32,000 nucleotides of DNA from Promethearchaeum syntrophicum (GTDB taxonomy: Archaea > Asgardarchaeota > Lokiarchaeia > Sigyniarchaeales > Promethearchaeaceae). Every line of letters starts with the position of its first letter. Position 1 is the first letter of the stretch. This document shows positions 1,955 to 25,396 of this stretch, piece after piece. The position numbers were made by a program, and so were the translations under genes. The stretch covers positions 1,500,001 to 1,532,000 of the forward strand of contig NZ_CP042905.2 in NCBI RefSeq assembly GCF_008000775.2. Direction: 5' to 3'. The notes beneath the pieces were generated by a model, which did no database searches, was not told where the DNA came from, and was given only the letters and a program-made list of their open reading frames with translations.

Positions 1955-3490
1955 ATGAGTCATAATCCCTCAAAAAGCTTTAGGAAAAAAACAACCCGTC
2001 GAAAATCCAGGAGAAGTTCTCAAGGATCTACTTCATCTGGTGCTGAAATTGAAATTGTCCGATATGGGGTCGGCTTAGATGTTCATAAGGAGAACATTGT
2101 GGTGAGTGTCGCGGCCCAAACTGAGCAAAACTTGATTATTCAAATTCGAACCCATAAATTTCGAAATCAACCTCAAGGATTGCAGGAATTAACCCAGTTC
2201 TTACAGAAATATCTTCCCGTTTCCCATTATTTAATGGAATGCACAGGCATATATCATCGACCTGTATATCACGCCTTGGAAGATGCATTTCCGAATTCAA
2301 AGACGAAAATTATTGCAATGAATCCATTATTGGTCCACCGTAAATTGACCGATTTGGGAAACAAACATGATAAAGCAGATGCTCAAGGCATGGCAGAACT
2401 TAGCTTCTACGATCGATTAATACGACCAAGTTATATCGGTACTCCCGAGTTTTTCCATTTGCGGGATACTCTGCGAAATTACAAGCATGCAAAGAAAGCA
2501 GCTAATAAATACGTGAATCGTATTCATCGAGTATTATGCAGTGTCAATTTCATGCATAAACTTAATCTTCATCATGAATGGGAATTACACTTGCTCGATT
2601 TTATGATTACAACTGAAGGTCCGATGAAACGGGCATTTAAAGCAATGGTAGAATCATCTCAGTTAGAAAAGCGATCAATCAGCAGCTTGATGAAACATCA
2701 AGATGATTATGTGCCTTATTTTAACATAGAACTTCCCAAAACTTCTCGGTTCAACTTGCGACAATTAGTCATCCAATATCTCCAAGCAGAAACAAATGCT
2801 GCCCAATATTTATTGCAAACCGAAAAACAAATTCTTAAGGATGCTGAATTCGAATATTGGTACCTCCAACTTCTCCGAATTCCCTGTGTAGGGCAAGTTT
2901 CCGCCTTGCGTTTAATTACTGAATTAGGGGATTTTCGACGGTTTGTCAATTGGAAGGCTTTTGCTAAATATTGCGGAGTAGTTCCTGAAATAAAGGAAAG
3001 TGGAGGAACATTTACTCCCGGTCATATCAATCGGTTTACTAATACTCATCTTCGGACCGCCTTATCACAAATTGCCATGTTATATGTCAACGGTTATGCC
3101 AAGGGAAGCGACTTAGCTAAATTTGCTCATCGCCAGTATGTTTTAAGAGGACTTCCTTACAAGAAAGCCGTGATGCGAGTGGCTCAAAAACTCAGTCGCA
3201 TTATATATCAAGTCCTAGTAAATAATGTTTCCTATGATGCGACTTTTGAACAAACCAAGGCGAAAATACAGCGATTGCAGCGCCGAAATACCAAACACGG
3301 TACAATGTTAGAATTTCCCCAAACTCGCAGTCTCCGTCGTGATATATCTCAACTTTTGGTTACCAACTCACAATATATGACCTCCAAAAGTCGCTTCTTC
3401 TTGATAAAGGGTTTCCAACAATTGATACGGAAGGCAAATGTAGTGGAACTGCAAGGGACTAAGGTGGATTCAAAAAAAAATAAGATTTAG
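1955..3490 (+). CDS. IS110-family transposase (DEDD RuvC-like N-domain plus Transposase_20 C-domain)
   Basis: N-domain motifs are VGLDVHK, MECTGIYH and KHDKADAQGMAEL. The C-domain has IPCVGQVSALRLITELGDFRRFVNWKAFAKYCGVVPEIKESGG, the family hallmark. An unusual 36-aa basic N-terminal extension is present (KKTTRRKSRRSS). Confidence 0.9.
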   Translation: MSHNPSKSFRKKTTRRKSRRSSQGSTSSGAEIEIVRYGVGLDVHKENIVVSVAAQTEQNLIIQIRTHKFRNQPQGLQELTQFLQKYLPVSHYLMECTGIYHRPVYHALEDAFPNSKTKIIAMNPLLVHRKLTDLGNKHDKADAQGMAELSFYDRLIRPSYIGTPEFFHLRDTLRNYKHAKKAANKYVNRIHRVLCSVNFMHKLNLHHEWELHLLDFMITTEGPMKRAFKAMVESSQLEKRSISSLMKHQDDYVPYFNIELPKTSRFNLRQLVIQYLQAETNAAQYLLQTEKQILKDAEFEYWYLQLLRIPCVGQVSALRLITELGDFRRFVNWKAFAKYCGVVPEIKESGGTFTPGHINRFTNTHLRTALSQIAMLYVNGYAKGSDLAKFAHRQYVLRGLPYKKAVMRVAQKLSRIIYQVLVNNVSYDATFEQTKAKIQRLQRRNTKHGTMLEFPQTRSLRRDISQLLVTNSQYMTSKSRFFLIKGFQQLIRKANVVELQGTKVDSKKNKI

Positions 3491-3741: not shown

Positions 3742-6700
3742 TTAATCCGAATTTAAATCTGAATTGCTTGAATTTTCCAACTTTTCGTTTATTTTTTTGT
3801 TTACAATAGATTCCAGTTTTTTCTTCTGATTCAAGCGGATCTTGATACCTATTATTCCAAAACCAAATGTCATAATTGTTCCAAGTATAGTCCAAAATAG
3901 ACCGTTCTTATAAAAAGGGACTTCATCACCAGGATCCATTGGATCAAGAGGATTTGTTTCATGCTCAATCTCCCATCCATCTTGATATCCATCTCCATCA
4001 GTATCTGCAATATTCGGATCGGTGTTATATTCATATTCTTGTAGATTTGTTAAAAGATCCAAATCTTTATCTTCATCTGCATCTTCAGCATCTCCAGCAT
4101 TAAATCCATTTTCATACTCCCATAGGTTAGGCATTCCATCTTCATCATAATCAAGTTCGGTATCATCAACCAGAGGATCAAGTCCACTGCTAACTTCATA
4201 GGCGTCATCCATTAAATCATTATCTGTATCATTATCAAAAGGATCTGTTCCCGCGTTAAACTCTTCTAAATTAGTGAGAGCATCTTCATCTTCATCATCA
4301 TTTGCATCATCTACAAGAGGGTCAAGTCCCTGCGTGATTTCATAACCATCATCCATTAAATCATTATCTGTATCATTATCAAAAGGATCTGTTCCTCTAT
4401 TAAATTCCTCTATATTCGTGAGTGTATCCGCATCTGCATCGTCATTAGCATCATTTACCAGCGGATCAAGTCCATTGTTTACTTCATAACCATCACCCAT
4501 TAAATCGTCATCAGTATCAATATTATTAGGATCTGTTCCTCTATTAAATTCCTCTATATTCGTGAGTGTATCCGCATCTGCATCGTCATTAGCATCATTT
4601 ACCAGTGGATCAAGATCATTGTCTACTTCATACCCATCATCCATTAGATCATCATCACTATCATCATCATTAGGATCAGTACCATGGACCTGAATTTCAT
4701 TATAATCATTAACATTGTCATCATCACTATCTGCATCAAAACGATCTGTAGGCTCATTTCCGTATCCATCATTTAATGTTCCGTAAACCTCCTCATAATC
4801 TAACAATCCGTCTGAATCCGAATCTTGATATAATGAAGAATCGGGATATTTCATGGGCAGATAATCGATACCTTTAGGTGTTATAATTACCGGATCATCG
4901 ATAATACCGTTTCCGTCAACATCCGGAGTTGTAACATTGTCCCAATAGTTTCCCTTTTCTGTATTGTTCCATGAATTACTTCCCAAGTCGTGTGCATGAA
5001 TGTTATTTGAATTAAATATATTTCCGTAAATTAAATTATAATTCACAGTGCTTTCATCTATAAAAATTCCTCTATCTGCATGATTTTGAATTCTATTATC
5101 ATAAAAAAGTCCTCCATTGCTTGAAGCAGTAAAATAAATGCCTCCTGCATTATTATCAAAAGTATTATTGAAAAATGTCGAATTTATGGATGTGTGAATG
5201 TAAGCTCCATATCCACCATTATTTTTAATTGTATTATTTTCAAAACTATTCCAATCTGCTCCATCTCTTAAATAAATACCTTGATACAAGTGATCTTCAA
5301 TAGTATTGTTAATAATCTCGTTTGAGGAAGACCCAAAGCGTAATTGAATTCCGTAACCATTATCCCTAATTTCACAATTTTTAATTTCATTATCTTCTGA
5401 ACTTCCTATATATACACCATAACCATTGTCTTTAATTTCACACTTGGTTATTATATTGTTTTGACCATTCTCTTCAATATTGATACCGTAAGTGCTCGTA
5501 AACATTTCATAATTATTATTAATAATGCAATTTTCAATAGTATTAAATGATGATCCATCCTGTAGAGAAATGCCTTCCCACCCATTACTCGCATTGCAAT
5601 CTTCAATAACAACATTATGGGAATTTATCAAAGTAATACCATGGGTTGCTTTAGATACATTTTGATTTTGAATTTGTGCAGTATCACACCCAATTAAGTA
5701 GATCTGACCCGCGTTTGTGAAATCTGAATTATCTAAATCATTCTGATTAACGTAATAATAGAATTTTCTTCCATTTACTGTATTATTTTCGGAATAAAAA
5801 GTGAGTGATTCTAATTCTTCATTTTCTCCAGAAATCTCATAGCCTCCACCGTTTATTAAAGCATTGCCTCCGAAAATTCCCCCATCAATGTTTACAATAT
5901 TAATTCCAATAACATTCTTGGCATCGACTGTATTATTATATACTTTCAGATCGGTAATTCCACTTAATGAGAGTCCATAACTCTGAAAGTGTCCATTTGT
6001 ATATACCGTGTTGTTTATAATAGTGAGATTAGTAATACTAGTTCTACAATCTATCCCTGTAGCAGAGTCTGCTGTTAAATCTATACTATTATTTTCGAGG
6101 AGAGTATCTTGGATATTTGAACGCACATTAATTCCATTATCATCACTTCCCGTGATTTGGTTATGTTTAACTTGGTTTCCATTTGAATACGTGTAAATAT
6201 CAATACCATCACCACAATCAATAATTGTGGTGTTAAGGATGAAATTATCATTAGAATACCAAGTCAAAAAAATTCCATCAAAAATATTAGACTCGAATGT
6301 ACTATCTGCAATCGTGTTATTCTTGCTATTCCAAGCTAGGTAGACACCAAAATCATTTGAAGATGACGTACAGTTTACTATTGTTCCGTTACATGTTTCT
6401 TCAAAATAGATTCCAGCATCTACAAACCCAGTAGCGGATACATTTTCAATTCTAAAATAATAATTTTTCGAATTCATGATTATTAAACCATCATCACTTC
6501 CAGGAGAGAGAATCAAATCTTCAATTACATAAGGATCCTCAAATGTTCCTGAACCGCTGCACCATGGTTGATTCACTGCCCAGTTCCAATTACCAGAATT
6601 TGAAGTGTTAAAGCCTTGTGTAGGATCAATAGTTAATGTGGTGTTAGTATAACTTGCATTTGGTTTATTTTGTGAGAAAGTAAAGTTAGATTCTAGTTCA

Positions 6701-6837
6701 TGATTGAACGCAACCAAAATAAGTGAATTTATTATCAAGCTTATCAAAATTATACCCAAGATTAGTGAACTCCTAGAAGATGATCTAATCTTTGGTCTCC
6801 AATTAAATTGTAATCTTATTTTCATGCATCCCATCAC
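3742..6837 (-). CDS. Large cell-surface protein: N-terminal signal/anchor, parallel beta-helix (PbH1/NosD-like) repeats, acidic calcium-binding-type repeats, C-terminal TM anchor
   Basis: The N-terminal hydrophobic segment is SLILGIILISLIINSLILVAF. There are many N-x-[ST] sequons and repeated NN.I..N...GI.L units typical of right-handed beta-helices. The Asp-rich region (DxDxDxxxD, thrombospondin-type-3-like) covers nt 3922-4824. The C-terminal TM is LFWTILGTIMTFGFGIIGIKI, followed by a Lys-rich tail. The track start at 6837 is GTG; ATGs lie at 6834 and 6825. Confidence 0.85.
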   Translation of the reverse strand: MMGCMKIRLQFNWRPKIRSSSRSSLILGIILISLIINSLILVAFNHELESNFTFSQNKPNASYTNTTLTIDPTQGFNTSNSGNWNWAVNQPWCSGSGTFEDPYVIEDLILSPGSDDGLIIMNSKNYYFRIENVSATGFVDAGIYFEETCNGTIVNCTSSSNDFGVYLAWNSKNNTIADSTFESNIFDGIFLTWYSNDNFILNTTIIDCGDGIDIYTYSNGNQVKHNQITGSDDNGINVRSNIQDTLLENNSIDLTADSATGIDCRTSITNLTIINNTVYTNGHFQSYGLSLSGITDLKVYNNTVDAKNVIGINIVNIDGGIFGGNALINGGGYEISGENEELESLTFYSENNTVNGRKFYYYVNQNDLDNSDFTNAGQIYLIGCDTAQIQNQNVSKATHGITLINSHNVVIEDCNASNGWEGISLQDGSSFNTIENCIINNNYEMFTSTYGINIEENGQNNIITKCEIKDNGYGVYIGSSEDNEIKNCEIRDNGYGIQLRFGSSSNEIINNTIEDHLYQGIYLRDGADWNSFENNTIKNNGGYGAYIHTSINSTFFNNTFDNNAGGIYFTASSNGGLFYDNRIQNHADRGIFIDESTVNYNLIYGNIFNSNNIHAHDLGSNSWNNTEKGNYWDNVTTPDVDGNGIIDDPVIITPKGIDYLPMKYPDSSLYQDSDSDGLLDYEEVYGTLNDGYGNEPTDRFDADSDDDNVNDYNEIQVHGTDPNDDDSDDDLMDDGYEVDNDLDPLVNDANDDADADTLTNIEEFNRGTDPNNIDTDDDLMGDGYEVNNGLDPLVNDANDDADADTLTNIEEFNRGTDPFDNDTDNDLMDDGYEITQGLDPLVDDANDDEDEDALTNLEEFNAGTDPFDNDTDNDLMDDAYEVSSGLDPLVDDTELDYDEDGMPNLWEYENGFNAGDAEDADEDKDLDLLTNLQEYEYNTDPNIADTDGDGYQDGWEIEHETNPLDPMDPGDEVPFYKNGLFWTILGTIMTFGFGIIGIKIRLNQKKKLESIVNKKINEKLENSSNSDLNSD
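4180..4611 (-). repeat. Three tandem 144-bp (48-aa) coding repeats inside the surface protein gene
   Basis: The units read DPLVNDANDDADADTLTNIEEFNRGTDP..DTD.DLM.DGYE....GL. Units at 4324-4467 and 4468-4611 share long identical DNA stretches (for example the run starting GGATCTGTTCC at 4385 and again at 4529). Confidence 0.85.
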
Positions 6838-7751: not shown

Positions 7752-8804
7752 TTAATCATTAGGATTATTTTCACAATAATCCACAATATATTCATTTTCA
7801 TTTCTTTTTCGGATGTTGTCTAAATAATTTAATTTTAATGCGGTTTCTTGTTTTGTAATAACAGAAAAGCCTAATTTTTCATTATTATACTTGGTTGGAC
7901 CTTTAATCTTAGTTCTTTTATTAATGAAATCAATGTGGTTTTTGATTCTTCTCTTTATGTAGTTATTCGCAATAGGTTTTAAATTTTCAATATTTGATTC
8001 TATAATATCTTTCATAGAAATATCTATTTCAATCCCAATACTATTCCGTTCGGAAGTCATTGCCGCAATACTAGTTGTACCAGTTCCTAGAAAAGGATCA
8101 AGAATTGTATCTCCCTTTGTTGAGAACATATTAGCTAATCTATATGCCAATTCAAATGGGAAGGCTGCACTTCTTTTTCTTGTGAGTTTATTATTTAGAT
8201 TTTGTGAAATTCCTTTAAAATCCCAGATATCAGAGAACCAGATATTTCTCTCTTCCCAAAAATATGAACTTTCCCTACGATTTATCTTCCGATTTTCTTC
8301 TTTGAAATCTCTTTTATTGCCTTTTCTAAATATTAAAATAAATTCATGTTCTAAAGTAACATACGCCCCTGGAGGAAGCATTCCAGATCCCATGAATTTA
8401 TTAGGGGCATTGGTCTGTTTTCTCCATATAATTTCTGGTAAAGATTGAAATCCTAATTCTAAAAAATGCTCAATAATTCTTGCATGAGATGGAAAAAGTT
8501 GGAATTTTTTATCTATTGTTCTTGTTGCATCACCTATATTAATGCAAACAATTCCTCCCGGAACAATAACTCTAAATAATTCACACCAGACTTTCTTTAA
8601 TTCTTCATGCATAAGCTGAAATGCTTTCTCACTTTCGGATTTTTCCAAGGCATCTTTAATTTTGGAATTTTGATTGCAGAAAATTTCATCCCACATTTCA
8701 ATCATTGGATACGGTGGAGAAGTAATTACCAATTCAATAGATTCATCTTTAATTTCTCCTAGATTATCCGCAGATTTGTAAATAAATTTATGCGATGTGT
8801 TCAT
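7752..8804 (-). CDS. Beta-class DNA methyltransferase (N4/N6 family, SPPY motif)
   Basis: Motif IV (VITSPPYP) is near the N-terminus and motif I (DPFLGTGTTSIAA) near the C-terminus, which is the beta-class permutation of PF01555-type enzymes. Confidence 0.85.
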   Translation of the reverse strand: MNTSHKFIYKSADNLGEIKDESIELVITSPPYPMIEMWDEIFCNQNSKIKDALEKSESEKAFQLMHEELKKVWCELFRVIVPGGIVCINIGDATRTIDKKFQLFPSHARIIEHFLELGFQSLPEIIWRKQTNAPNKFMGSGMLPPGAYVTLEHEFILIFRKGNKRDFKEENRKINRRESSYFWEERNIWFSDIWDFKGISQNLNNKLTRKRSAAFPFELAYRLANMFSTKGDTILDPFLGTGTTSIAAMTSERNSIGIEIDISMKDIIESNIENLKPIANNYIKRRIKNHIDFINKRTKIKGPTKYNNEKLGFSVITKQETALKLNYLDNIRKRNENEYIVDYCENNPND

Positions 8805-8825
8805 GCTTATCTGTCCTGAGATATT

Positions 8826-9872
8826 TTATGACTTAATAAATTTAAAAAGTGTGCTGTTTTTATCATTATCCAGATTTAGTTTTTTTCTTATTTTTTCAAC
8901 AATATTCGAACTAATATTCATTTTCTCAAGAGTATCTAGAAGAATTTCTAGATTGATTCTATCTTTTTTTGTTTTCAAATCTGATAATTCTGTGTTTGTG
9001 TTTTCTAATAATTGTAGTAATGTTTTAATTGATCTTTCATAATGAGGAATCAAAATAGGTGTTTTTGGTTCATATTGGCTCTTATTAATAATTGTTTCTT
9101 TGATGAGATTTTCACGAGGGAACATTTCATAACCATATCCTTGTAATCCTAAAGAATTAGCGGCAGCCAGTGTTGTTCCAGTTCCTAAAAATGGATCTAA
9201 AACGGATTTTGCATTAGGTACGGCTTTAATACAGGAATATGGTAATCCAATTGGAAATGGAGCATCATGACCTTTTTTAATTGTCGCTCCTGTAGTTTTT
9301 TCATAGCAAATATGAAGCAAATTTCCAGGATCCCGTAAATCTGAACTTCCATATCTTCCTATATTCGATTTATCTGCATATGGTATTCCAATTGCTTTGG
9401 GATTTAATTCATATTTTTTTTTATCTTTTACAAAGAGGAATATATGTTCCCATACATTATTAAAACGTTTGTTTCCTCCTGAAGGAGTATAATGTCCTTT
9501 TCCATATATAGATTTTACCCAAATAATATCTTGTATACGTATCCAACCTGCTTGTTCTGTAGAATTTGCTACTTTTTCTGATAAACCTTGAGTTGTTGCA
9601 GAATCGCCAATGTTTAAAAAAAACACTGCTTTTTCTGAAGAAACACGAAAGCATTCTTTCCAGACCCTATTCAACATTTGAAAATATTCTTTTTCTGGAA
9701 GTGAATCATTATATTTTACATTTGAATCAGAAGAATAATGTTTTCCACGATTATATGGGGGAGAAGTTATTATGATATCGATAGTGTCATCTTGAATTTC
9801 ATCCATTTTCTCTGATGATTTAAAATAAACTGTTTGATTGTCAATAACTAACATTTTCGAAGATCCATGCAT
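8826..9872 (-). CDS. Beta-class DNA methyltransferase (N4/N6 family, SPPY motif), paralogous to its neighbour
   Basis: Motif IV is IITSPPYN and motif I is DPFLGTGTTLAAA. The gene ends 21 nt before the start of the downstream methyltransferase gene on the same strand. Confidence 0.85.
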   Translation of the reverse strand: MHGSSKMLVIDNQTVYFKSSEKMDEIQDDTIDIIITSPPYNRGKHYSSDSNVKYNDSLPEKEYFQMLNRVWKECFRVSSEKAVFFLNIGDSATTQGLSEKVANSTEQAGWIRIQDIIWVKSIYGKGHYTPSGGNKRFNNVWEHIFLFVKDKKKYELNPKAIGIPYADKSNIGRYGSSDLRDPGNLLHICYEKTTGATIKKGHDAPFPIGLPYSCIKAVPNAKSVLDPFLGTGTTLAAANSLGLQGYGYEMFPRENLIKETIINKSQYEPKTPILIPHYERSIKTLLQLLENTNTELSDLKTKKDRINLEILLDTLEKMNISSNIVEKIRKKLNLDNDKNSTLFKFIKS

Positions 9873-11836: not shown

Positions 11837-13558
11837 TTATATTAATAGCTTTTCTATTCGAATTCTTATCCCATATTCTAAAAGCTGTAGAAGATAACTC
11901 TCGGCACTCAGTATTGAACTATATCTTTGCTCAAACTTTCGGCGAATGTAAGGTGAGCGCGGTTCCCAAGAAACCTTATTCCACACCTTTTTGCGTTCTT
12001 GTTCAAGCATCATTCGCATCCGAGCTACATGCCATCTGTTATAAAGTATCATTCCCAATTCTAAATTCCACTGACGTTGGGTAGACTTGCGACTCCTTGA
12101 TAATCGAACAAACTTAGCTTTACCCTCTTTAAACCCATTTTCAATAGACCATCTTTCATGATACACTTGAGCAAGTTTAATGAAATAATCTGTGTTATGT
12201 TTAATCGCTTCATCTATTGTCGATGATATGGTAAAAAACATAAGAGAATTAAGCATCAATGTTTGATTTTTCTTTAATTTCTTGAGATACTCCATAGACT
12301 TTATTATCTGCTTATATTTCTTATAAAGTTGTGAATTTCTGAACTTAGTCCTTTTTCTTTGAGTTATTTTTTTTATTATAGAAGGATTCTTGATTCCTGC
12401 TTGTTTTTGAAGATCAATGTATTCTTTCTGATATTCATCAATTCTATCTTCGGAGGACTTGATATTTTTCTTAGTAACCATCCATTCATGTTTAAGATCT
12501 TTGAGTTTTCGATTCCTGTTTGTCTGATATCCATCCACAACAGCCACTAATACAACAGGAATATGATACATTGAATCATATGTTTTCATTTCAGATGCTT
12601 CACAATATCCTTTTAATGAAGGATGCGTATATTTCGATAAATTAATATAATCCATAAATACTTCTTTTGAATTTGGGTCTTCTAAGAATGCAACCTTTTT
12701 TCTAACCTTTTCCCTGGCAAATTTTTTTGGTACAATAACTCTAATATTATCGTTATGCTTACATTTACTACTAATTTGATTGAAATATGCAGCTGTAAAT
12801 AATTCACCATTATAATACCCTCGATCAGCGTCAATAAACTTTACTTCAGATCCTGCACCTTCAACTATCTTGCAAGAGTTTTGTAACTGCCCAATAAAGG
12901 CTTGAATTGTAGTATTCTCGTATTTAGGTTTATGGTAATTCTGATGTAGTGTACTTATAAAGAGTTGATTGGTGCAATCATACACAGATGAATAAGTAAA
13001 GCCTCGTTTCCACGTATTATTTTGACCAATATGGACAAATGAATATTGATCATTCAAGTATTTAGAACGTGTTTCTTCAGGCGTCGTGTCGATAGCAAGG
13101 ATTACCTCCTTGGATTTACCGTTAAACTCATTTAATTCTTTCATACATGCGGTATAGTTTTCATTAAGTTTATCATCAAGATTGGGTTTACTATCTTGGA
13201 TGACATTGTCAGTAACTGCTTGACGACTTGCGGATAGAGGAAATTTCCTTGATTCTGGCATAAAAATCTCAATTGCATTATTTAATGCTGTGTCTGTATC
13301 TTGCGATGCCTTGATGGACGACAACACCGAATAAATAGATGTTGAAATTACGTTCAAGTGTTTCTTTCCAATTTCCAATGATGATTTAGTCAACATTGAG
13401 GAGATCAGAGTCAAAATAACCCGTTCTTTTGTATTTTGTGAGGAATTTACCTTCCTTTTCTGTTTACTCGTTAATCCGAGCAAATCAAGTTGTTCCGAAA
13501 AGACTAAATGGAGTTGTTCATTATCTAAAGATGAGATGCTACTTACCTCTTGGTACAT
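11837..13558 (-). CDS. IS4-like DDE transposase
   Basis: Candidate DDE residues lie in LAIDTTPE and FIDADRGYY. YHERWSIENGFKEGK fits the Y(2)R(3)E(6)K signature of IS4-type transposases. Confidence 0.8.
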   Translation of the reverse strand: MYQEVSSISSLDNEQLHLVFSEQLDLLGLTSKQKRKVNSSQNTKERVILTLISSMLTKSSLEIGKKHLNVISTSIYSVLSSIKASQDTDTALNNAIEIFMPESRKFPLSASRQAVTDNVIQDSKPNLDDKLNENYTACMKELNEFNGKSKEVILAIDTTPEETRSKYLNDQYSFVHIGQNNTWKRGFTYSSVYDCTNQLFISTLHQNYHKPKYENTTIQAFIGQLQNSCKIVEGAGSEVKFIDADRGYYNGELFTAAYFNQISSKCKHNDNIRVIVPKKFAREKVRKKVAFLEDPNSKEVFMDYINLSKYTHPSLKGYCEASEMKTYDSMYHIPVVLVAVVDGYQTNRNRKLKDLKHEWMVTKKNIKSSEDRIDEYQKEYIDLQKQAGIKNPSIIKKITQRKRTKFRNSQLYKKYKQIIKSMEYLKKLKKNQTLMLNSLMFFTISSTIDEAIKHNTDYFIKLAQVYHERWSIENGFKEGKAKFVRLSRSRKSTQRQWNLELGMILYNRWHVARMRMMLEQERKKVWNKVSWEPRSPYIRRKFEQRYSSILSAESYLLQLLEYGIRIRIEKLLI

Positions 13559-21361: not shown

Positions 21362-21802
21362 TTAAGGCAAAGTTAATAGATTTAATCCTTTAATTCTCTT
21401 AAAATGATTTATATTACCTGTTAAAAGATCCCTATATGAAGATTTGAGGATGATGCTAGCAATTATGCAATCGAAATTTTCTATTTTTTTACCTTGAGAC
21501 ACTAATTGGTGATAGATTTCAGCACTTTTTATTGCTGTTTGGCTAGTCATATTATATACTTTTAAATTTTGGACTAAATTATTCAATGCTTGTCTTTCGT
21601 GTTTTAATTTTTCTTGCGCTACTTTTTGTTTTGAATATTCTAATTGATAAAACCCAAAATAAAGTTCATATACATTTGCTGATGTCGTTGCAATTTGATC
21701 ATATTGAGAAAAAATTGAAGATAAATCAACAGAATCAATATTTTCATGCAAAATGCCAATTAACACATCTGTATCTACAAATAAAACGTTTTGCAAAACC
21801 AT
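21362..21802 (-). CDS. vapC: PIN-domain ribonuclease toxin VapC
   Basis: The N-terminus is LFVDTDVLIGIL, with acidic residues in PIN spacing. It lies 12 nt downstream of a small antitoxin gene. Confidence 0.8.
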   Translation of the reverse strand: MVLQNVLFVDTDVLIGILHENIDSVDLSSIFSQYDQIATTSANVYELYFGFYQLEYSKQKVAQEKLKHERQALNNLVQNLKVYNMTSQTAIKSAEIYHQLVSQGKKIENFDCIIASIILKSSYRDLLTGNINHFKRIKGLNLLTLP

Positions 21803-21814
21803 TTTAAAAATCTC

Positions 21815-22069
21815 TTAGTTTTCTCCATTAATTCGAGTGTTGAAAGATTTCTGCATTTGTTTCCTGGATTCTGCATAGGTTTCTATTGCAAATTTTTCAT
21901 ATTCAGGATCGTCTGATTTAGCAGCGCCATAAAATGAAAGAATTTTCTCTACATTTGAAGTGTTATCCAATAGACGTTCTATAATGTCGGAAAAACTTTC
22001 ATTGGTTTTTTTAGCTTTTTTTAAACGATTATACACATCTTGTTTAATTGAAATTTGTTGCGAAGCCAT
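21815..22069 (-). CDS. vapB: VapB-type antitoxin (archaeal DUF217/PF02697-like)
   Basis: ISIKQDVYNRLKKAKKTNESFSDIIERLL matches the characteristic family N-terminus. Confidence 0.75.
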   Translation of the reverse strand: MASQQISIKQDVYNRLKKAKKTNESFSDIIERLLDNTSNVEKILSFYGAAKSDDPEYEKFAIETYAESRKQMQKSFNTRINGEN

Positions 22070-22321
22070 ATCAATATATAGACAATATATATATTTATTT
22101 TTTTCTGGTTCTTTTATTTATATTTATGAATATTATTATTTTCAAGGGAAAAAAAAATACGAAATAATAATTACAATATTAAATAAACAAAAAATAATCC
22201 AATCCCATGCTACCTTTACCAAATGTTCTGAATTTTGTTATATACAATTTATATTTTCAAATCCTTTCTCAAGTTAATTTGTAAAGCCTCTAAAATAACT
22301 TATCAAATTTTTTAATTTTTA

Positions 22322-22353
22322 TAGTGTGTCATGAAGGTTTTTCTTACACACTA
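22322..22353. promoter_or_regulatory. Inverted repeat TAGTGTGT-16nt-ACACACTA upstream of the peptide array; third half-site TACACACT at 22419-22426
   Basis: Read directly from the sequence: 8-bp arms at 22322-22329 and 22346-22353, with the same half-site recurring 66 nt downstream. Confidence 0.3.
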
Positions 22354-22498
22354 ATTTTTCTTCAAAATAATGACTTAATTTTGATTATATTCGATTTATT
22401 AATGATACATATTTTTATTACACACTTTTTACGCAACCTTTAAATACTAGAGTCACCTTATTATAATTAGAACTTAGAAATTAAATCGGTGGAAAAAA

Positions 22499-22588
22499 AT
22501 GAAAAAAAATCGAAACTTATACGCAAAGAAAAACGCTTTTGATATGATGGTTCAGAATCCCGGATTAATCAGCTCAATCCGAGTATAA
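22499..22588 (+). CDS. Lysine-rich small peptide, copy 1 (29 aa)
   Basis: MKKNRNLYAKKNAFDMMVQNPGLISSIRV; GGTGG plus an A-run precedes the ATG. Differences from the other copies are synonymous or conservative. Confidence 0.65.
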   Translation: MKKNRNLYAKKNAFDMMVQNPGLISSIRV

Positions 22589-22636
22589 AATTAATAAATA
22601 ATTTTTTAAAATAAAAAACTTAACAGTGAAAAAAAA

Positions 22637-22726
22637 ATGAAAAAAATATTAAAACTTTACATTAAAAAAAACGCCTTTGATCTGATGGTAGAGAATCCCG
22701 GATTAATCAGCTCAATCCGAGTATAA
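22637..22726 (+). CDS. Lysine-rich small peptide, copy 2 (29 aa)
   Basis: MKKILKLYIKKNAFDLMVENPGLISSIRV; AGTGA plus an A-run precedes the ATG. Confidence 0.65.
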   Translation: MKKILKLYIKKNAFDLMVENPGLISSIRV

Positions 22727-22773
22727 AAATAATCAATAATTTTTTTAAATAAAAATCTAAACAGTGAAAAAAA

Positions 22774-22863
22774 ATGAAAAAAACTCAAAAAAAATACATT
22801 AAAAAAAACGCCTTTGATCTGATGGTAGAGAATCCCGGATTAATCAGCTCAATCCGAGTATAA
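22774..22863 (+). CDS. Lysine-rich small peptide, copy 3 (29 aa)
   Basis: MKKTQKKYIKKNAFDLMVENPGLISSIRV; AGTGA plus an A-run precedes the ATG. Confidence 0.65.
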   Translation: MKKTQKKYIKKNAFDLMVENPGLISSIRV

Positions 22864-22911
22864 AAATAATCAATAATTTTTTTAACTAAAAATCTAAACA
22901 GGGGAAAAAAA

Positions 22912-23010
22912 ATGAAAAATATGAAAAAAACTCAAAAAAAATACATTAAAAAAAACGCCTTTGATCTGATGGTAGAGAATCCCGGATTAATCAGCTCAAT
23001 CCGAGTATAA
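22912..23010 (+). CDS. Lysine-rich small peptide, copy 4 (32 aa, or 29 aa from the ATG at 22921)
   Basis: MKNMKKTQKKYIKKNAFDLMVENPGLISSIRV; relative to copy 3 it has an in-frame 9-nt 5' extension, so the frame is preserved. Confidence 0.65.
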   Translation: MKNMKKTQKKYIKKNAFDLMVENPGLISSIRV

Positions 23011-23188
23011 TATCAATAAAAATTTTTTCAAATTATATTGGGATGCAAAATGGCAAAATGAACATGTTAGGCATGTAATAACTAACAAATAATAAAAATA
23101 ATAATAATAACGCTCATAAAAATAATAAAATAAAAAAAACAACAATTATGATTATAAAAATAATAAATTGCAAACAAAAAATTGGTAG

Positions 23189-24364
23189 ATGATAATAATG
23201 ATAGAAAAAGATGACGATTATGATTTTGATGATGATTTAGACGAAGAAGACGAAGAAGACGAAGAAGAAGAAGAAGAAGACGAAGAAGACGAAGAAGAAG
23301 AGGATGATGATTATATGGATGACGAAGATGAAATTTCGGAAAGCCCAATGAAAATCTCGGGATCTATGAAACTTCCTGGGGGTAAAATAAATCGGGACTT
23401 AAGAGTCTCTGGGTCAGTTACGATAGATAGTGATTTTGAATGCGAACACTTGCGCGCATCAGGTTCTGTTTCTGCTTTAGGAAACATTACTGCCCATAAT
23501 GGAGTGAGATCCAGTGGATCATTTAATTGTAGAGGCAGTCTGTTCGCCGATGATGGAGTTGTAAAATTAACTTCTTCTTCGAATATCGAAGGAGATGTTA
23601 TACTTGAATGCATGATTAAAGCCTCAGGTTCGTTGCGCATTGGGGGAAGTTTACATGCTGAAGATTTAGCAAGGTTTAGCTCGAGTGTTTCCATCGGTTC
23701 AGATGCTGTGATAGATGGAGATATCAAAGTATCCGGAGGCTTCTCCTGTGGCGGATTATTAACTGCCGAAAAAAGCGCGCATTTTAGTGGAAGTGCTGAA
23801 ATTGGAAAGGATTGCGTTATTAATGAGAATCTTCATTCTTCAGGATCTTTTAATTGTAATGGTATGCTTCACGTAGATGAAAATACTCATTTCAGCAGTT
23901 CAGCATCGATTAAAAATGATGTTTTAATAAGTGGGTTTCTACATAGTTCGGGTTCCTTCAGCTGTGGGAGCAGTTGTGAAGCAGAAGCTGGTGTTAAATT
24001 TACAGGATCAAGTAAAATTAAAGGAAATTTGAGTTCTGAGAATACTATTGATATAATGGGTAGAGCAATAATAGGCAATAACGTAACCGCATCCAACCTT
24101 TATATTGGAGTGCATTCCAAAGGAATGAAAACACATTTGGAAAGTAGAGCATCGCGGATAGAGGGTAATGTCTCTGTTCAAAATCAAGTTCAATTGGAAG
24201 ATGCTTATGTAAATGGGGATCTTCGAGCTAGAACTGTGGATTTACTTAAAAATTCGGGTGTTGTAGGAACAATTTATTATGCTGATGAATTTAAAGCTCA
24301 TAAAGATGCAAAATATGGAGATGTTGTAAGAATTGATTCTGAAGATTTAGAGGAGAAAGAATAA
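23189..24364 (+). CDS. Bactofilin-like (polymer-forming cytoskeletal, DUF583-type) beta-helix protein with a poly-acidic N-terminal tail
   Basis: Residues ~8-48 are almost entirely D/E. After that, 13 [ST][GS][SG] triplets are spaced 17-18 residues apart (once 20), for example ISGSM, VSGSV, ASGSV, SSGSF. This matches the ~18-residue winding of bactofilin-type helices and the KISGSG-type openings of polymer-forming cytoskeletal proteins. Confidence 0.7.
   Translation: MIIMIEKDDDYDFDDDLDEEDEEDEEEEEEDEEDEEEEDDDYMDDEDEISESPMKISGSMKLPGGKINRDLRVSGSVTIDSDFECEHLRASGSVSALGNITAHNGVRSSGSFNCRGSLFADDGVVKLTSSSNIEGDVILECMIKASGSLRIGGSLHAEDLARFSSSVSIGSDAVIDGDIKVSGGFSCGGLLTAEKSAHFSGSAEIGKDCVINENLHSSGSFNCNGMLHVDENTHFSSSASIKNDVLISGFLHSSGSFSCGSSCEAEAGVKFTGSSKIKGNLSSENTIDIMGRAIIGNNVTASNLYIGVHSKGMKTHLESRASRIEGNVSVQNQVQLEDAYVNGDLRARTVDLLKNSGVVGTIYYADEFKAHKDAKYGDVVRIDSEDLEEKE
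23210..23332 (+). repeat. GAA/GAC/GAT-rich coding low-complexity tract (poly-D/E tail)
   Basis: There are runs such as GAAGAAGACGAAGAAGACGAAGAAGAAGAAGAAGAAGACGAAGAAGAC. The tract also generates the artefactual antisense ORF 23082..23348 (LLRLLR...). Confidence 0.85.
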
Positions 24365-24394: not shown

Positions 24395-25396
24395 ATGGCA
24401 CATTATGAAGAAGAAGAAGAAATTAAAAGATTGGGTGAAACAATTGATAGAATCAATGAACTAAATGAAAAAACATCTGATTTAATCGAAGATGCCAAAT
24501 CATACGCTCCTGATGCTGCTGATGTTGCAGATGATAAACTAGAAAATGCTAGAGAAAAATTAGATACTGCAAAAGAAAAACTGGGCAATACATGGGAGAT
24601 TTTACATGATTTTAAGGAAAGGGCTAGATTGGCTGCAGAAATCTATGATGAAGCACAAATGAGTGGAAATCCACAAATGGATGCCAAAGTTGAAAAAGCA
24701 AGATATACTGCTGAACGAACAAAAGCGAAACTTGAAGCATCAATTATGAAAACCTTAAGCAGTTTGGATAAAGCCAAAAATGCATCAGAAAAGGCTAATT
24801 CACGAGCGAATATTGCAGCTATTAAATCAAATGCAGCCGAATCCCGAGAAAAGGGAAAGAAAGTTCGTATAAATTTTACATTACCTGATGATATGAAACA
24901 ATCTTGGAAAGGTTTAGCAGATGACCTTAACATCTCAATTTCTCAAATGATAAGAACGGCAATGGATTCTTTTGAGAAAAATATAGACAATTTAGGGGAA
25001 TTAGGGGAATTAGGAGACTTTCATATTGAAAAAAAGAAGAAAAAGAAAGGAAAATTTAATGATCTAGAGCAAAGAATTGAGCGATGGGGAGATAAATTAG
25101 AAAAAAAATTTGAGCAAAAATATGAAAAATCTGGACAAGAAGGTGTTAAATTTTCAGAAGAAAACAAAGAAAAATTAAAGAAAAGATTAACCGGGTTCAT
25201 TAAAATTAATCAAAATATTCCTGTGGATAAATTTGCTCAAATATTAAATTGCTCAATTGCTCAAGCAGAGAATTTGATTTATGAATTAGCCGCAGAGGGA
25301 ATCGAAGGTTTTATGGAAAAAGGGGTATTCCGATATGAGAGCTCTACCGAAGAAGTTATTTCAGAACTTTTTAAAATCTTAGATCGGGAAGAGTAA
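24395..25396 (+). CDS. Coiled-coil protein with a central ribbon-helix-helix-like segment and a C-terminal winged-helix-like domain
   Basis: GGTGA-A8-ATG lies 30 nt after the preceding stop. The N-terminal ~150 aa are helical and rich in heptad-like A/K/E. KVRINFTLPDDMKQSWKGLADDLNISISQMIRTAMDSF looks like the strand-helix-helix of the CopG/RHH fold. IPVDKFAQILNCSIAQAENLIYELAAEGIEGFMEKGVFRY looks like a winged helix. Confidence 0.6.
   Translation: MAHYEEEEEIKRLGETIDRINELNEKTSDLIEDAKSYAPDAADVADDKLENAREKLDTAKEKLGNTWEILHDFKERARLAAEIYDEAQMSGNPQMDAKVEKARYTAERTKAKLEASIMKTLSSLDKAKNASEKANSRANIAAIKSNAAESREKGKKVRINFTLPDDMKQSWKGLADDLNISISQMIRTAMDSFEKNIDNLGELGELGDFHIEKKKKKKGKFNDLEQRIERWGDKLEKKFEQKYEKSGQEGVKFSEENKEKLKKRLTGFIKINQNIPVDKFAQILNCSIAQAENLIYELAAEGIEGFMEKGVFRYESSTEEVISELFKILDREE

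Follow-up and report, generated by a model that had tools for sequence, protein, structure and literature searches.

Four very short open reading frames (ORFs), arranged as a tandem array upstream of a bactofilin gene in Promethearchaeum syntrophicum MK-D1, are best read as a lineage-specific set of tandemly duplicated, autonomous micro-protein genes. That they are real, translated genes in a conserved bactofilin-linked slot is, in our judgement, fairly likely. Asgard cell biology has MK-D1 as its reference organism, and three of the four genes are missing from its annotation: the preliminary description of this DNA had called the array invisible to the 60-aa ORF track, and in the annotation units 1-3 are indeed absent, whereas unit 4 is present as DSAG12_01949. 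In the stretch of 32,000 nucleotides analyzed here (the window), TRF reported a single array at 22493-23033 (period 138, 3.9 copies, 88% matches, score 758), and the successive unit starts lie 138, 137 and 138 nt apart, in agreement with the period of 137-138 bp previously given. The four ORFs and their translations, as first obtained by hand, were all reproduced by the ORF listing (Table 1), and a 29-nt core occurs four times in the window versus never in 100 shuffles.

Table 1. Features of the array and of the two genes that follow it (positions are those of the window).
Feature	Position	Strand	Basis
Inverted repeat TAGTGTGT-N16-ACACACTA, upstream TACACAC box, operator-like look	22322..22353	.	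sequence reading
Unit 1 promoter: TACACAC box 22419-22425, TATA box TTTAAATA 22439-22446	22419..22446	+	alignment A5 with relatives' promoters
Unit 1 Shine-Dalgarno-like GGTGG, 6 nt 5' of ATG	22488..22492	+	sequence
Unit 1 ORF, 29 aa, MKKNRNLYAKKNAFDMMVQNPGLISSIRV, unannotated	22499..22588	+	ORF listing
T6 terminator-like run 22602-22607, overlapping unit 2 TATA-like box TTAAAATA 22606-22613	22602..22613	+	sequence
Unit 2 ORF, 29 aa, MKKILKLYIKKNAFDLMVENPGLISSIRV, unannotated	22637..22726	+	ORF listing
T7 run 22740-22746, overlapping unit 3 TATA box TTTAAATA 22744-22751	22740..22751	+	sequence
Unit 3 ORF, 29 aa, MKKTQKKYIKKNAFDLMVENPGLISSIRV, unannotated	22774..22863	+	ORF listing
T7 run 22877-22883, overlapping unit 4 degenerate TATA-like box TTTAACTA 22881-22888	22877..22888	+	sequence
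Unit 4 ORF, 32 aa, annotated DSAG12_01949 / QEE16120.1	22912..23010	+	ORF listing, annotation
T6 run 3' of unit 4	23023..23028	+	sequence
Hairpin-capable core, 10-bp stem, 2 G-U pairs	22559-22583, 22697-22721, 22834-22858, 22981-23005	-	folding
Bactofilin DSAG12_01950, 391 aa	23189..24364	+	Pfam PF04519, E 3e-13, 50 bits (cut-off 27.9)
Bactofilin partner DSAG12_01951: coiled coil, RHH-like segment, C-terminal winged-helix-like region	24395..25396	+	synteny, alignment A2

Within the C-terminal 18 codons, unit 1 differs from units 2-4, as had been claimed, by two synonymous changes (GCT/GCC and GTT/GTA) and two conservative ones (M/L and Q/E). The sole length change inside an ORF is, again as described, an in-frame 9-nt ATGAAAAAT duplication in unit 4, where initiation at a second ATG (22921) would yield a 29-aa peptide with the sequence of unit 3; the spacers between units also vary in length, by 1 nt located in an A-run. 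The net charges computed for the peptides of units 1 to 4 (+5, +4, +5 and +6) fall within the range of about +4 to +6 previously estimated. A purine box plus an A-run precedes each ATG (GGTGG, GTGA, GTGA and GGGGA in units 1 to 4), and the layout of unit 1 is like that of the gene starting at 24395, which reads GGTGA-A7-ATG, with seven A residues and not the eight initially reported. The spacers carry a T-run followed by a TATA-like box, the arrangement that had been proposed: the runs are T6 to T7, and the boxes end 22-23 nt before the ATG (23 nt from TTAAAATA to the ATG of unit 2, 22 nt from TTTAAATA to that of unit 3). Among the 163 small ATG-initiated ORFs (20-60 aa) in the window, only four have both a TATA box at fitting distance and a T6 further downstream, units 2-4 being three of them. 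For unit 1, a transcription start is predicted at ~22470.

Homology searches placed the array in no known family. Rfam 15 yielded no match at gathering score over the whole window; a permissive search of 22200-23300 gave, as best hits by E-value, 15-19 bits versus thresholds of 50-90, and no tRNA or tmRNA was found. The match to a known non-coding RNA that the preliminary description had named as an adverse outcome thus did not appear for the units in Rfam. At the protein level, the peptide matched nothing in NCBIfam or among PDB sequences and, in Pfam, only Pox_I6_C below threshold (16 bits; cut-off 23), consistent with the initial statement that no family could be recognized. An exhaustive profile search of 1.84 billion representative proteins retrieved no homolog beyond the peptide itself. 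Two of its matches (P0022 and P0023) are attributable to chance, inflated by internal repeats, P0022 containing 11 repeats of FDYMIGQPGVLSGVRV. The unit 1 peptide is absent from a 15-billion protein collection, the bactofilin and the 32-aa peptide are absent from a contig index interrogated by exact look-up, and word-index protein searches gave no match with the concatenated window peptides or with the concatenated type A/C peptides described below. A codon-degenerate DNA pattern for NPGLISSIRV was also used to scan genomes, viral contigs and metagenomes: it produced three chance matches in Bacteroidota (among 185,579 species genomes), unrelated in nucleotide sequence and context, no match in viral contigs and a single true relative, L009, in metagenomes. 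A reading of the ENPG motif as a viral 2A-like element was considered as well. The viral 2A "ribosome-skipping" motif, D-x-E-x-NPGP, has an obligatory Pro after NPG; all copies of the peptide read ENPGL or QNPGL, and the absence of Pro after Gly led to the rejection of this reading. In the literature, no paper was found that mentions the locus tags, or that describes bactofilin-linked small proteins, in Asgard archaea or elsewhere.

Only two copies were found outside the window, L009 (ending in YIKKNAFDIMVQNPGLICSIRV and a stop codon) and L012 (ending in KKNAFDLMVKNPGLISSFRV and a stop codon). Both keep the frame and the stop, with none of the frameshifts or stops that had been named as arguing against selection on the reading frame, and this retention, together with an excess of synonymous changes, supports the proposal that the units are self-contained mini-genes. 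Specifically, pS was higher than pN in every pair compared, with pN/pS about 0.15-0.5 derived from few substitutions only; Fisher's p was 0.006 for unit 1 versus L012 and 0.027 for unit 1 versus unit 2, the remaining pairs being non-significant. In the last 20 codons, the variable columns are distributed as 4/0/6 over the three codon positions, with none at the second. Units 1 and 3 are separated by 13 substitutions with the frame intact, an outcome that random substitution at that level reproduces in 16% of trials, and indels were seen in the A-runs of the spacers, whereas the ORFs have none in their A7-A8 runs. The last 12 codons of L009 must be considered biased towards the peptide, because this copy was found through the codon-degenerate pattern; moreover, a rhodanese/TusA-like gene, not a bactofilin, lies 3' of its unit. 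As for expression, DSAG12_01949 has an RPKM of 277 (Imachi et al. 2020, Suppl. Table 3) versus ~226 expected from uniform coverage (10^9 / 4.43 Mb), and the table is uninformative because most genes, at 200-300, sit at the uniform-coverage value. A search for proteomic data on the peptides found none; the tryptic peptides to look for would be NAFDLMVENPGLISSIR from units 2-4 and NAFDMMVQNPGLISSIR from unit 1. AlphaFold modeled the peptide alone as two short helices with moderate confidence (pLDDT 72). Altogether, these sequence comparisons provide moderate evidence for coding of the four units.

The array is flanked directly upstream by a VapBC pair (DSAG12_01948 being the VapB-like gene) and is followed by the bactofilin gene, the coiled-coil/RHH gene and a gene for a 914-aa protein with no Pfam match. 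The bactofilin starts with a poly-Asp/Glu tail of 53 residues (charge -37), disordered in the AlphaFold model, which continues as a long beta-helix with strands over residues 54-381 (pLDDT 89.7); a Foldseek search of this model against the PDB gave generic beta-helix matches only. The -37 tail is confined to the lineage that has the +5 peptides, and the orthologs begin directly at the beta-helix (MKISGSG). DSAG12_01951 matches RHH_1 weakly, and its gene is syntenic in seven other loci (L004, L006, L010, L011 and L013-15). In some relatives, two MFS transporter genes are found 3' of the bactofilin pair.

In these same seven loci, the slot ahead of the bactofilin gene holds one to three small ORFs of 26-34 aa, of types A and C, as exemplified by GCA_016839915.1, GCA_048939445.1 and several Logan/JGI contigs. 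Their pN/pS values of 0.11-0.53 (p down to 0.0002), with third-position variation dominant, indicate purifying selection over the entire length of the peptide. They share with the window array the slot, the strand and the first promoter (TACACAC plus TTTAAATA), the succession of ribosome-binding site or TATA box, short ORF and oligo-T, and the adjoining bactofilin and coiled-coil/RHH gene pair. The unit 1 promoter aligns to that of L011 with a local score of 32 (shuffles 10 +/- 1.7, maximum 17) and to those of L006 and L010 with 24 and 23, respectively, scores reached by 0 of 500 shuffles; the TACACAC/GTGTGTA boxes around it recur in L004, L006, L010 and L011. On these alignments, the first promoter of the array is orthologous to the one heading the bactofilin loci of the relatives. 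The peptides themselves are different: those of the relatives are Tyr-rich and near-neutral, whereas those of the window are Lys-rich with charges of +4 to +6; hhalign gave a probability of 0.5% and shuffling a p of 0.13-0.6 between the two sets (p <= 0.004 between types A and C), and no similarity over the type A/C motif E-N/K-S/G-Y-E-x-Y ... D-A ... A-Y/F was detected in the window peptides. That the slot is the same is therefore deduced from the orthologous promoters and not from any homology of the peptides. The spacing also differs. The type-C ORF lies 22-51 nt 5' of the bactofilin start, and this adjacency, with no terminator-like T-run in between, suggests that the last small ORF of the relatives is probably co-transcribed with the bactofilin in one operon; in the window, unit 4 is 178 nt away from the bactofilin, with a T6 run in between. 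No comparable small-ORF array was found at the more distant bactofilin loci L007/L008 and L016. As judged from the loci compared, a conserved small-ORF slot heads the bactofilin locus across Promethearchaeota, a feature that we found in no paper, and the link to the downstream beta-helix gene that had been proposed at the outset is strengthened by the common promoter and by the selected ORFs in the slot. Because this position is occupied by different small genes in related archaea, the four units probably encode real but uncharacterized small proteins.

The spacers bear on a different explanation, namely that the repeat is non-coding and consists of duplicated terminator/promoter/operator cassettes or is a decaying repeat, the open frames being a by-product of A-rich, T-poor sequence. 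Such a repeat would fit the observation that the 3' spacers of type-A cassettes are more conserved than their ORFs (86% versus 75%), the presence of the operator-like TACACAC and CACGATCATC motifs, and the plasticity of the slot, which in L006 holds a truncated ORF beside an inserted nitroreductase gene and in L011 a single divergent ORF. We nevertheless regard it as improbable: it leaves unaccounted for that two unrelated peptide families at the slot both show an excess of synonymous changes and a codon-phase bias, that each ORF has an ATG suitably spaced from a ribosome-binding site or a TATA box, and that slippage-prone A-runs persist with no frame-breaking indel.

The main rival explanation, which the preliminary description had overlooked and which we still hold to be unlikely, is that the functional product is an antisense sRNA, the forward-strand ORFs being incidental or secondary. 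The RNA predicted on the minus strand has 57 nt (for example 22722 down to about 22665), with an A/T box TTTTTATTTAAA ~22 nt upstream of a CUCGGAUUGA-GCUGA-UUAAUCCGGG hairpin and a 3' part of ~25 nt of single strand with a U8 run, ending at the T8 complementary to the KK(N) codons. It spans precisely the invariant half of the repeat and fits the invariant C-terminal half of the peptides equally well, and its boundaries would account for variation in the N-terminal third of the ORF and not in the remainder. In addition, the hairpin is weaker on the forward strand because two G-U pairs become C.A mismatches there, both hairpin changes in L009 fall in the loop, and weak cmscan alignments to PrrF caught the same layout of hairpin plus U-run. 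However, no covariation was observed, and L012 has lost two stem pairs with no compensation; folding gave z-scores of only -0.6 to -1.3; and no Rfam family matches. Neither the 4/0/6 codon phase nor the synonymous excess in the forward frame is predicted by an RNA gene, and the orthologous slot of the relatives holds protein-selected ORFs with no conserved hairpin. Finally, in so A/T-rich a repeat, A-runs automatically yield T-runs and TATA-like boxes on the opposite strand. It should be mentioned that an antisense RNA could also act as an antitoxin-like partner of the sense peptide, in which case both readings are compatible.

The position of the T-runs raises the question of whether the ORFs could be translated solely as cis-acting leader peptides. 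Ribosomes on each short ORF would then modulate termination at the adjacent downstream T-run, so that the four cassettes act as an attenuator with several steps, controlling read-through into the bactofilin operon, and the peptide has no function of its own. Each stop codon is followed by a T6-T7 run within ~15 nt, AAA lysine codons are abundant in the ORFs and lie within A7-A8 runs, which can stall or slip ribosomes, and the location ahead of this operon is a conserved one. In contrast, what is conserved in amino acids is the C-terminal 18 residues, the Lys-rich part being variable; the peptides of the relatives are under purifying selection over their full length; and units 2-4 have promoters of their own, for which an attenuator has no need. 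To our knowledge, translation-coupled attenuation of this type has not been established in archaea, and we give this mechanism little credence.

A further proposal concerns the destination of the peptides, which might be exported or membrane-active, either as a leaderless multi-peptide antimicrobial or as the toxin of a type I toxin-antitoxin system. They are indeed small, cationic, multi-copy and devoid of signal peptide or leader, a VapBC toxin-antitoxin pair lies directly upstream, and the two MFS transporter genes mentioned above follow the bactofilin pair in some relatives. Against this stand their mean Eisenberg hydrophobicity, about -0.1 and ranging from -0.16 to +0.08, with no long hydrophobic or transmembrane stretch and a modest amphipathic moment, the near-neutral, Tyr-rich nature of the peptides of the relatives, and the fact that no transporter, immunity or processing gene adjoins the array in the window. 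The absence of such genes, and of any similarity to Pfam, NCBIfam or PDB entries, means that the leaderless-bacteriocin analogy of the preliminary description was not upheld, and an exported or membrane-active product appears very improbable.

Returning to the reading of the units as autonomous micro-protein genes, the following scheme can be envisaged. Unit 1 would be transcribed from the conserved, probably regulated promoter (TACACAC plus TTTAAATA), with its GGTGG ribosome-binding site in a short leader of ~29 nt. Units 2-4 would use their own TATA-like boxes and, given that archaeal promoter geometry places a box 22-23 nt before the ATG close to a start at or near the codon itself, would produce leaderless or near-leaderless mRNAs of ~110 nt. 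Termination would take place at the oligo-T found within ~15 nt of each stop, a run that abuts the next TATA box. The predicted products are cationic peptides of 29-32 aa, with a variable Lys-rich N-terminus and a constrained C-terminal half NAFDLMVENPGLISSIRV, whose dosage would be raised by the fourfold amplification. The array would thus be the occupant of the slot in the MK-D1 lineage, in a locus ordered as small ORFs, bactofilin and coiled-coil/RHH/wHTH protein, and the cationic peptides may bind the -37 tail of the bactofilin or, alternatively, cap or tether its beta-helix. A bactofilin-accessory function is the likeliest role but, taken by itself, is put forward only tentatively on the basis of this sequence context. 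The broader idea is similarly tentative: that the peptides belong to a trans-acting, fast-evolving and copy-number-variable class capping, bundling or membrane-tethering the Asgard bactofilin polymer, and that in MK-D1 the +5 peptides co-evolve with a newly acquired -37 tail. In any case, these candidate cytoskeletal accessory peptides form a testable set, for which the reagents would be 29-mers made by synthesis, a single clean tryptic peptide suited to mass spectrometry and a recombinant form of the bactofilin. If they are such bactofilin partners, they would help to shape the protrusion-forming cell of an organism that is, among those in culture, the closest relative of eukaryotes; if the units are antisense-RNA genes or attenuators instead, they would be rare documented tandem regulatory cassettes in an Asgard genome.

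Several known systems can be compared with the array. Aureocin A70 is encoded by several adjacent genes for leaderless cationic peptides of ~30 aa, an organization that the window reproduces; however, dedicated transporter or immunity genes are lacking in the window, there is no sequence similarity, and the array belongs to an archaeal chromosome, where it is tied to a cytoskeletal operon. The tandem type I toxin-antitoxin loci of bacteria (Ibs/Sib, Ldr/Rdl and Zor/Orz) likewise consist of very small ORFs with their own promoter and terminator and, possibly in our case, an antisense RNA, but the window peptides are neither hydrophobic nor transmembrane, and the antisense RNA is a prediction whose stem is not conserved. 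Bacterial bactofilins carry an N-terminal membrane-targeting sequence with the consensus MFSKKKK (PMC12448750), which, as the window peptides, is short, Met-initiated, Lys-rich and bactofilin-associated. No such tail exists in the bactofilins of Promethearchaeota, that of MK-D1 being acidic; furthermore, the bacterial sequence is part of the bactofilin chain, whereas the window peptides would be products of separate genes, and the type A/C peptides of the relatives do not resemble it. Lastly, the bactofilin-operon regulator BacR/YhbD of Bacillus subtilis is a DUF4004 transcription factor (PMC13649987) of normal size, and our literature search found no micro-protein partner of a bactofilin. It nonetheless offers a precedent for the general arrangement proposed here, in which a bactofilin gene shares an operon with non-enzymatic partners that control or bind the bactofilin.

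The preliminary description had derived, by hand translation of the + strand, four short ORFs encoding Lys-rich peptides, and the ORF list gives exactly the same four; Tandem Repeats Finder reported them as its sole array, with a period of 138, 3.9 copies and a score of 758. Four occurrences of a 29-nt core were counted in the window, against none in shuffles, and the four-unit array is a real feature. The unit alignment (A1) and the extracted codons bear out the four differences that separate copy 1 from copies 2-4 within the C-terminal 18 codons, two of them synonymous and two conservative. Unit 4 has an in-frame 9-nt duplication, the sole ORF-internal length change, and the spacers vary by one A. 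A T6-T7 run follows every stop codon, abutting a TTTAAATA-like box that ends 22-23 nt before the next ATG. Unit 1 carries GGTGG 6 nt 5' of its ATG, resembling the GGTGA-A7-ATG ahead of DSAG12_01951, the gene at 24395. A TATA-like box at the 22-23 nt distance together with a downstream T6 was found in 4 of the 163 small ATG-ORFs of the window, three of them being units 2-4. Just upstream of the array, a 25-aa hydrophobic ORF (MLPLPNVLNFVIYNLYFQILSQVNL) likewise combines a TATA-like box, at a distance suited to a leaderless mRNA, with a T6 downstream, probably by chance in this case.

In archaeal promoters, the start site follows the centre of the TATA box by ~26-27 nt. With this geometry, units 2-4 would produce leaderless or near-leaderless mRNAs, unit 1 would have a ~29-nt leader with a ribosome-binding site, and the T-runs would serve as oligo-U terminators; the TATA-to-ATG distance of units 2-4 recurs in several large genes of the window. 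The stop-then-T-run layout would also suit cis-acting leader peptides, but neither the conserved C-terminal residues nor the separate promoters fit that interpretation.

An exact look-up identified the 32-aa product as QEE16120.1, DSAG12_01949 of Promethearchaeum (Ca. Prometheoarchaeum) syntrophicum MK-D1, and the published gene table lists consecutively DSAG12_01948 (a VapB-like gene), 01949 (unit 4) and 01950 ("polymer-forming cytoskeletal"). Units 1-3 are unannotated, since the three 29-aa peptides were not found in a collection of 15 billion proteins. No match was obtained for the peptides in Pfam, NCBIfam or PDB sequences, and in Rfam nothing reached the gathering threshold, permissive settings bringing up no more than noise of 15-19 bits. 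When a four-peptide profile was scored against 1.84 billion representative proteins, it matched the peptide and two long proteins of repetitive sequence, which were rejected as homologs because their 4-11 internal repeats inflate the E-values. One of these two, P0022 (1009 aa), has 11 repeats containing FDYMIGQPGVLSGVRV, a sequence similar to FDLMVENPGLISSIRV; it was judged a repeat-inflated chance match, and is probably a spurious ORF spanning a tandem DNA repeat. As for expression, Imachi et al. 2020 (PMC7015854, Suppl. Table 3) reported RPKM values of 277, 327 and 331 for DSAG12_01949, 01950 and 01951, in a table with little dynamic range for single genes, in which most MK-D1 genes lie at 200-300, ~226 being expected from uniform coverage of the 4.43-Mb genome. 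The same table gives RPKM 0 across ~35 consecutive genes, DSAG12_01848-01883.

Outside the array, a codon-degenerate pattern yielded only chance matches in 185,579 species genomes and one true window-type copy in metagenomes (contig L009). Its peptide reads ...YIKKNAFDIMVQNPGLICSIRV*, followed by T10; the next gene, of 267 aa, is rhodanese/TusA-like as read from sequence alone, and not a bactofilin, so that the unit may exist in other contexts too. Shortly upstream of the unit, the contig breaks off in poly-A-rich sequence. A further copy, reading ...KKNAFDLMVKNPGLISSFRV*, was provided by the contig of a near-identical strain (L012; 99.7% identity in DSAG12_01951), which starts inside the last unit. 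In every pair among units 1-3, L009 and L012, pS exceeded pN, although the numbers are small and the last 12 codons of L009 are constrained by the search pattern; the excess was significant for unit 1 versus L012 (5/12.5 against 3/47.5, p 0.006) and versus unit 2 (p 0.027), and not in the remaining pairs. Over the last 20 codons, these five copies vary at 10 columns, again small numbers, which fall 4/0/6 by codon position. The window-type ORFs combine start and stop signals with frame conservation.

The most serious rival is an antisense small RNA. Read on the minus strand, a 10-bp hairpin (with two G-U pairs) is preceded at ~22 nt by an A/T box and followed by ~25 nt and U8, and the predicted RNA would have precisely the extent of the unit's invariant half. 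However, no covariation was found, two pairs of the stem are disrupted in L012 with no compensating change, fold z-scores are weak and the substitutions carry codon phase. Overall, the array quite probably consists of genuine micro-protein genes.

The bactofilin downstream (Pfam PF04519) has its best homologs, at ~33% identity, in Promethearchaeota MAGs, where the coiled-coil/RHH-like/wHTH-like partner again lies 3' of it (alignment A2). Small ORFs precede the bactofilin on the same strand in contigs L004, L006, L010, L011 and L013/L014. They are of two kinds, type A (MENSYEYYxxIKxxFDAKxAFNGxMY[FY]) and type C (...IEKGYExYxxIKxxI....AYLxLIF), whose mutual similarity is significant (p <= 0.004). 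With pN/pS of 0.11-0.53 (best pair 9/12 against 13/69, p 0.0002) and variable columns distributed 16/13/28 over codon positions, they are under purifying selection. The distance from a type-C ORF to the bactofilin start is 22-51 nt; a GGAGGT ribosome-binding site is present, no T-run intervenes, and the two genes are probably co-transcribed. The slot is conserved, fast-evolving and linked to the bactofilin pair; it is also plastic, as a nitroreductase gene separates a truncated type-C ORF (MERKESKEQGYEYYKAIKARLDA*) from the bactofilin in L006. The more distant L016 shows no small-ORF array over L016:640-1870.

Features of the window and of other contigs (L numbers)
Feature	Position	Remarks
IS110-family transposase	1955-3490	
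Beta-helix/NosD/TSP3-repeat gene	3742-6837, minus	1031 aa
Tandem repeat, 144 nt (48 codons)	4162-4677	3.6 copies, inside the 1031-aa gene
Two adjacent N4/N6 DNA methylase genes	7752-9872	
Weak DDE-transposase-like ORF	11837-13558	
VapBC (PIN/VapB) pair	21362-22069	directly upstream of array
25-aa hydrophobic ORF	22207-22284	
TACACAC/GTGTGTA boxes	22322-22353, 22419-22425; L011:545-600; L004:5340-5420	
Array	22493-23033	
Units 1-4	22499-22588, 22637-22726, 22774-22863, 22912-23010	29, 29, 29, 32 aa
Bactofilin DSAG12_01950	23189-24364	
Partner DSAG12_01951	24395-25396	
Small ORFs, L004		three, 27/31, 27, 34 aa; repeat of ~180 nt
Small ORFs, L010 and L013/L014		two each
Small ORFs, L006		one plus one truncated, beside inserted nitroreductase gene
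Small ORF, L011		one
Type-A 58-nt 3' stretch	L004:5568-5625, L004:5745-5802, L010:945-1002, L013:729-786, L006:1487-1544	
Nitroreductase gene	L006:1569-2414	
Window-type unit, L009	L009:1300-1405, minus	sole metagenomic copy
Two tandem bactofilin paralogues	L016:640-1870	behind sequence resembling a tRNA gene by eye

No similarity was detectable between the window peptides and types A/C. Nevertheless, the first promoter of the window aligns with those of the small-ORF/bactofilin loci (TACACAC box, TTTAAATACTAG, TTAATTAGAAC, GGTG-A-run-ATG), scoring 32 against L011 (shuffles 10 +/- 1.7), and 24 and 23 against L006 and L010, values reached by 0/500 shuffles. The array is therefore a positional counterpart of the slot rather than a demonstrable sequence homolog, and we consider it somewhat probable that it represents the MK-D1 version. 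In all six loci, the first promoter has its TATA box between TACACAC/GTGTGTA boxes, some of them arranged as inverted repeats, which have the appearance of a conserved operator. An obvious candidate regulator is the partner protein: it has a coiled coil at the N-terminus, an RHH-like segment (RINFTLPDDMKQSWKGLADDLNISISQMIRTAM) and, C-terminally, a winged-helix-like region, and may bind DNA or serve as an adaptor. In type-A cassettes, the 58 nt 3' of the small ORF read TAA-ATACAA-T8-A-T7/8-ATCACGATCATCAAATTAATTAAATTA. Between genomes this stretch is better conserved than the ORF (mean 86% versus 75%); besides termination, it may thus have a role that depends on its sequence, for example as the next promoter or as an operator resembling CACGATCATC. 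The same difference favors purely non-coding cassettes, a proposal contradicted by the excess of synonymous changes found for two families of peptides.

The MK-D1 bactofilin has 391 aa, compared with 227 in its closest orthologs, and comprises a disordered 53-residue Asp/Glu tail of charge -37, followed by a ~330-residue beta-helix (model pLDDT 89.7). The tail is exclusive to MK-D1, the orthologs beginning directly at MKISGSG; the L012 protein (374 aa, 17 residues shorter) differs from it in the acidic tail where the alignment covers both. A bacteriocin or toxin would find neither transporter or immunity genes nor hydrophobicity in its favor. We regard the peptides as a new family of small proteins and not as a novel type of system; their moderate interest is raised by the organism, MK-D1, and by direct testability. 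Peptides of +4 to +6 charge in four copies exist only in MK-D1, and could act on the bactofilin. Bacterial bactofilins bear in cis a Lys-rich N-terminal membrane-targeting peptide, MFSKKKK (PMC12448750), which the archaeal proteins lack; this absence, the -37 tail, the orthologs starting at MKISGSG and the basic peptides circumstantially make a functional tie to the bactofilin a plausible, if tentative, candidate.
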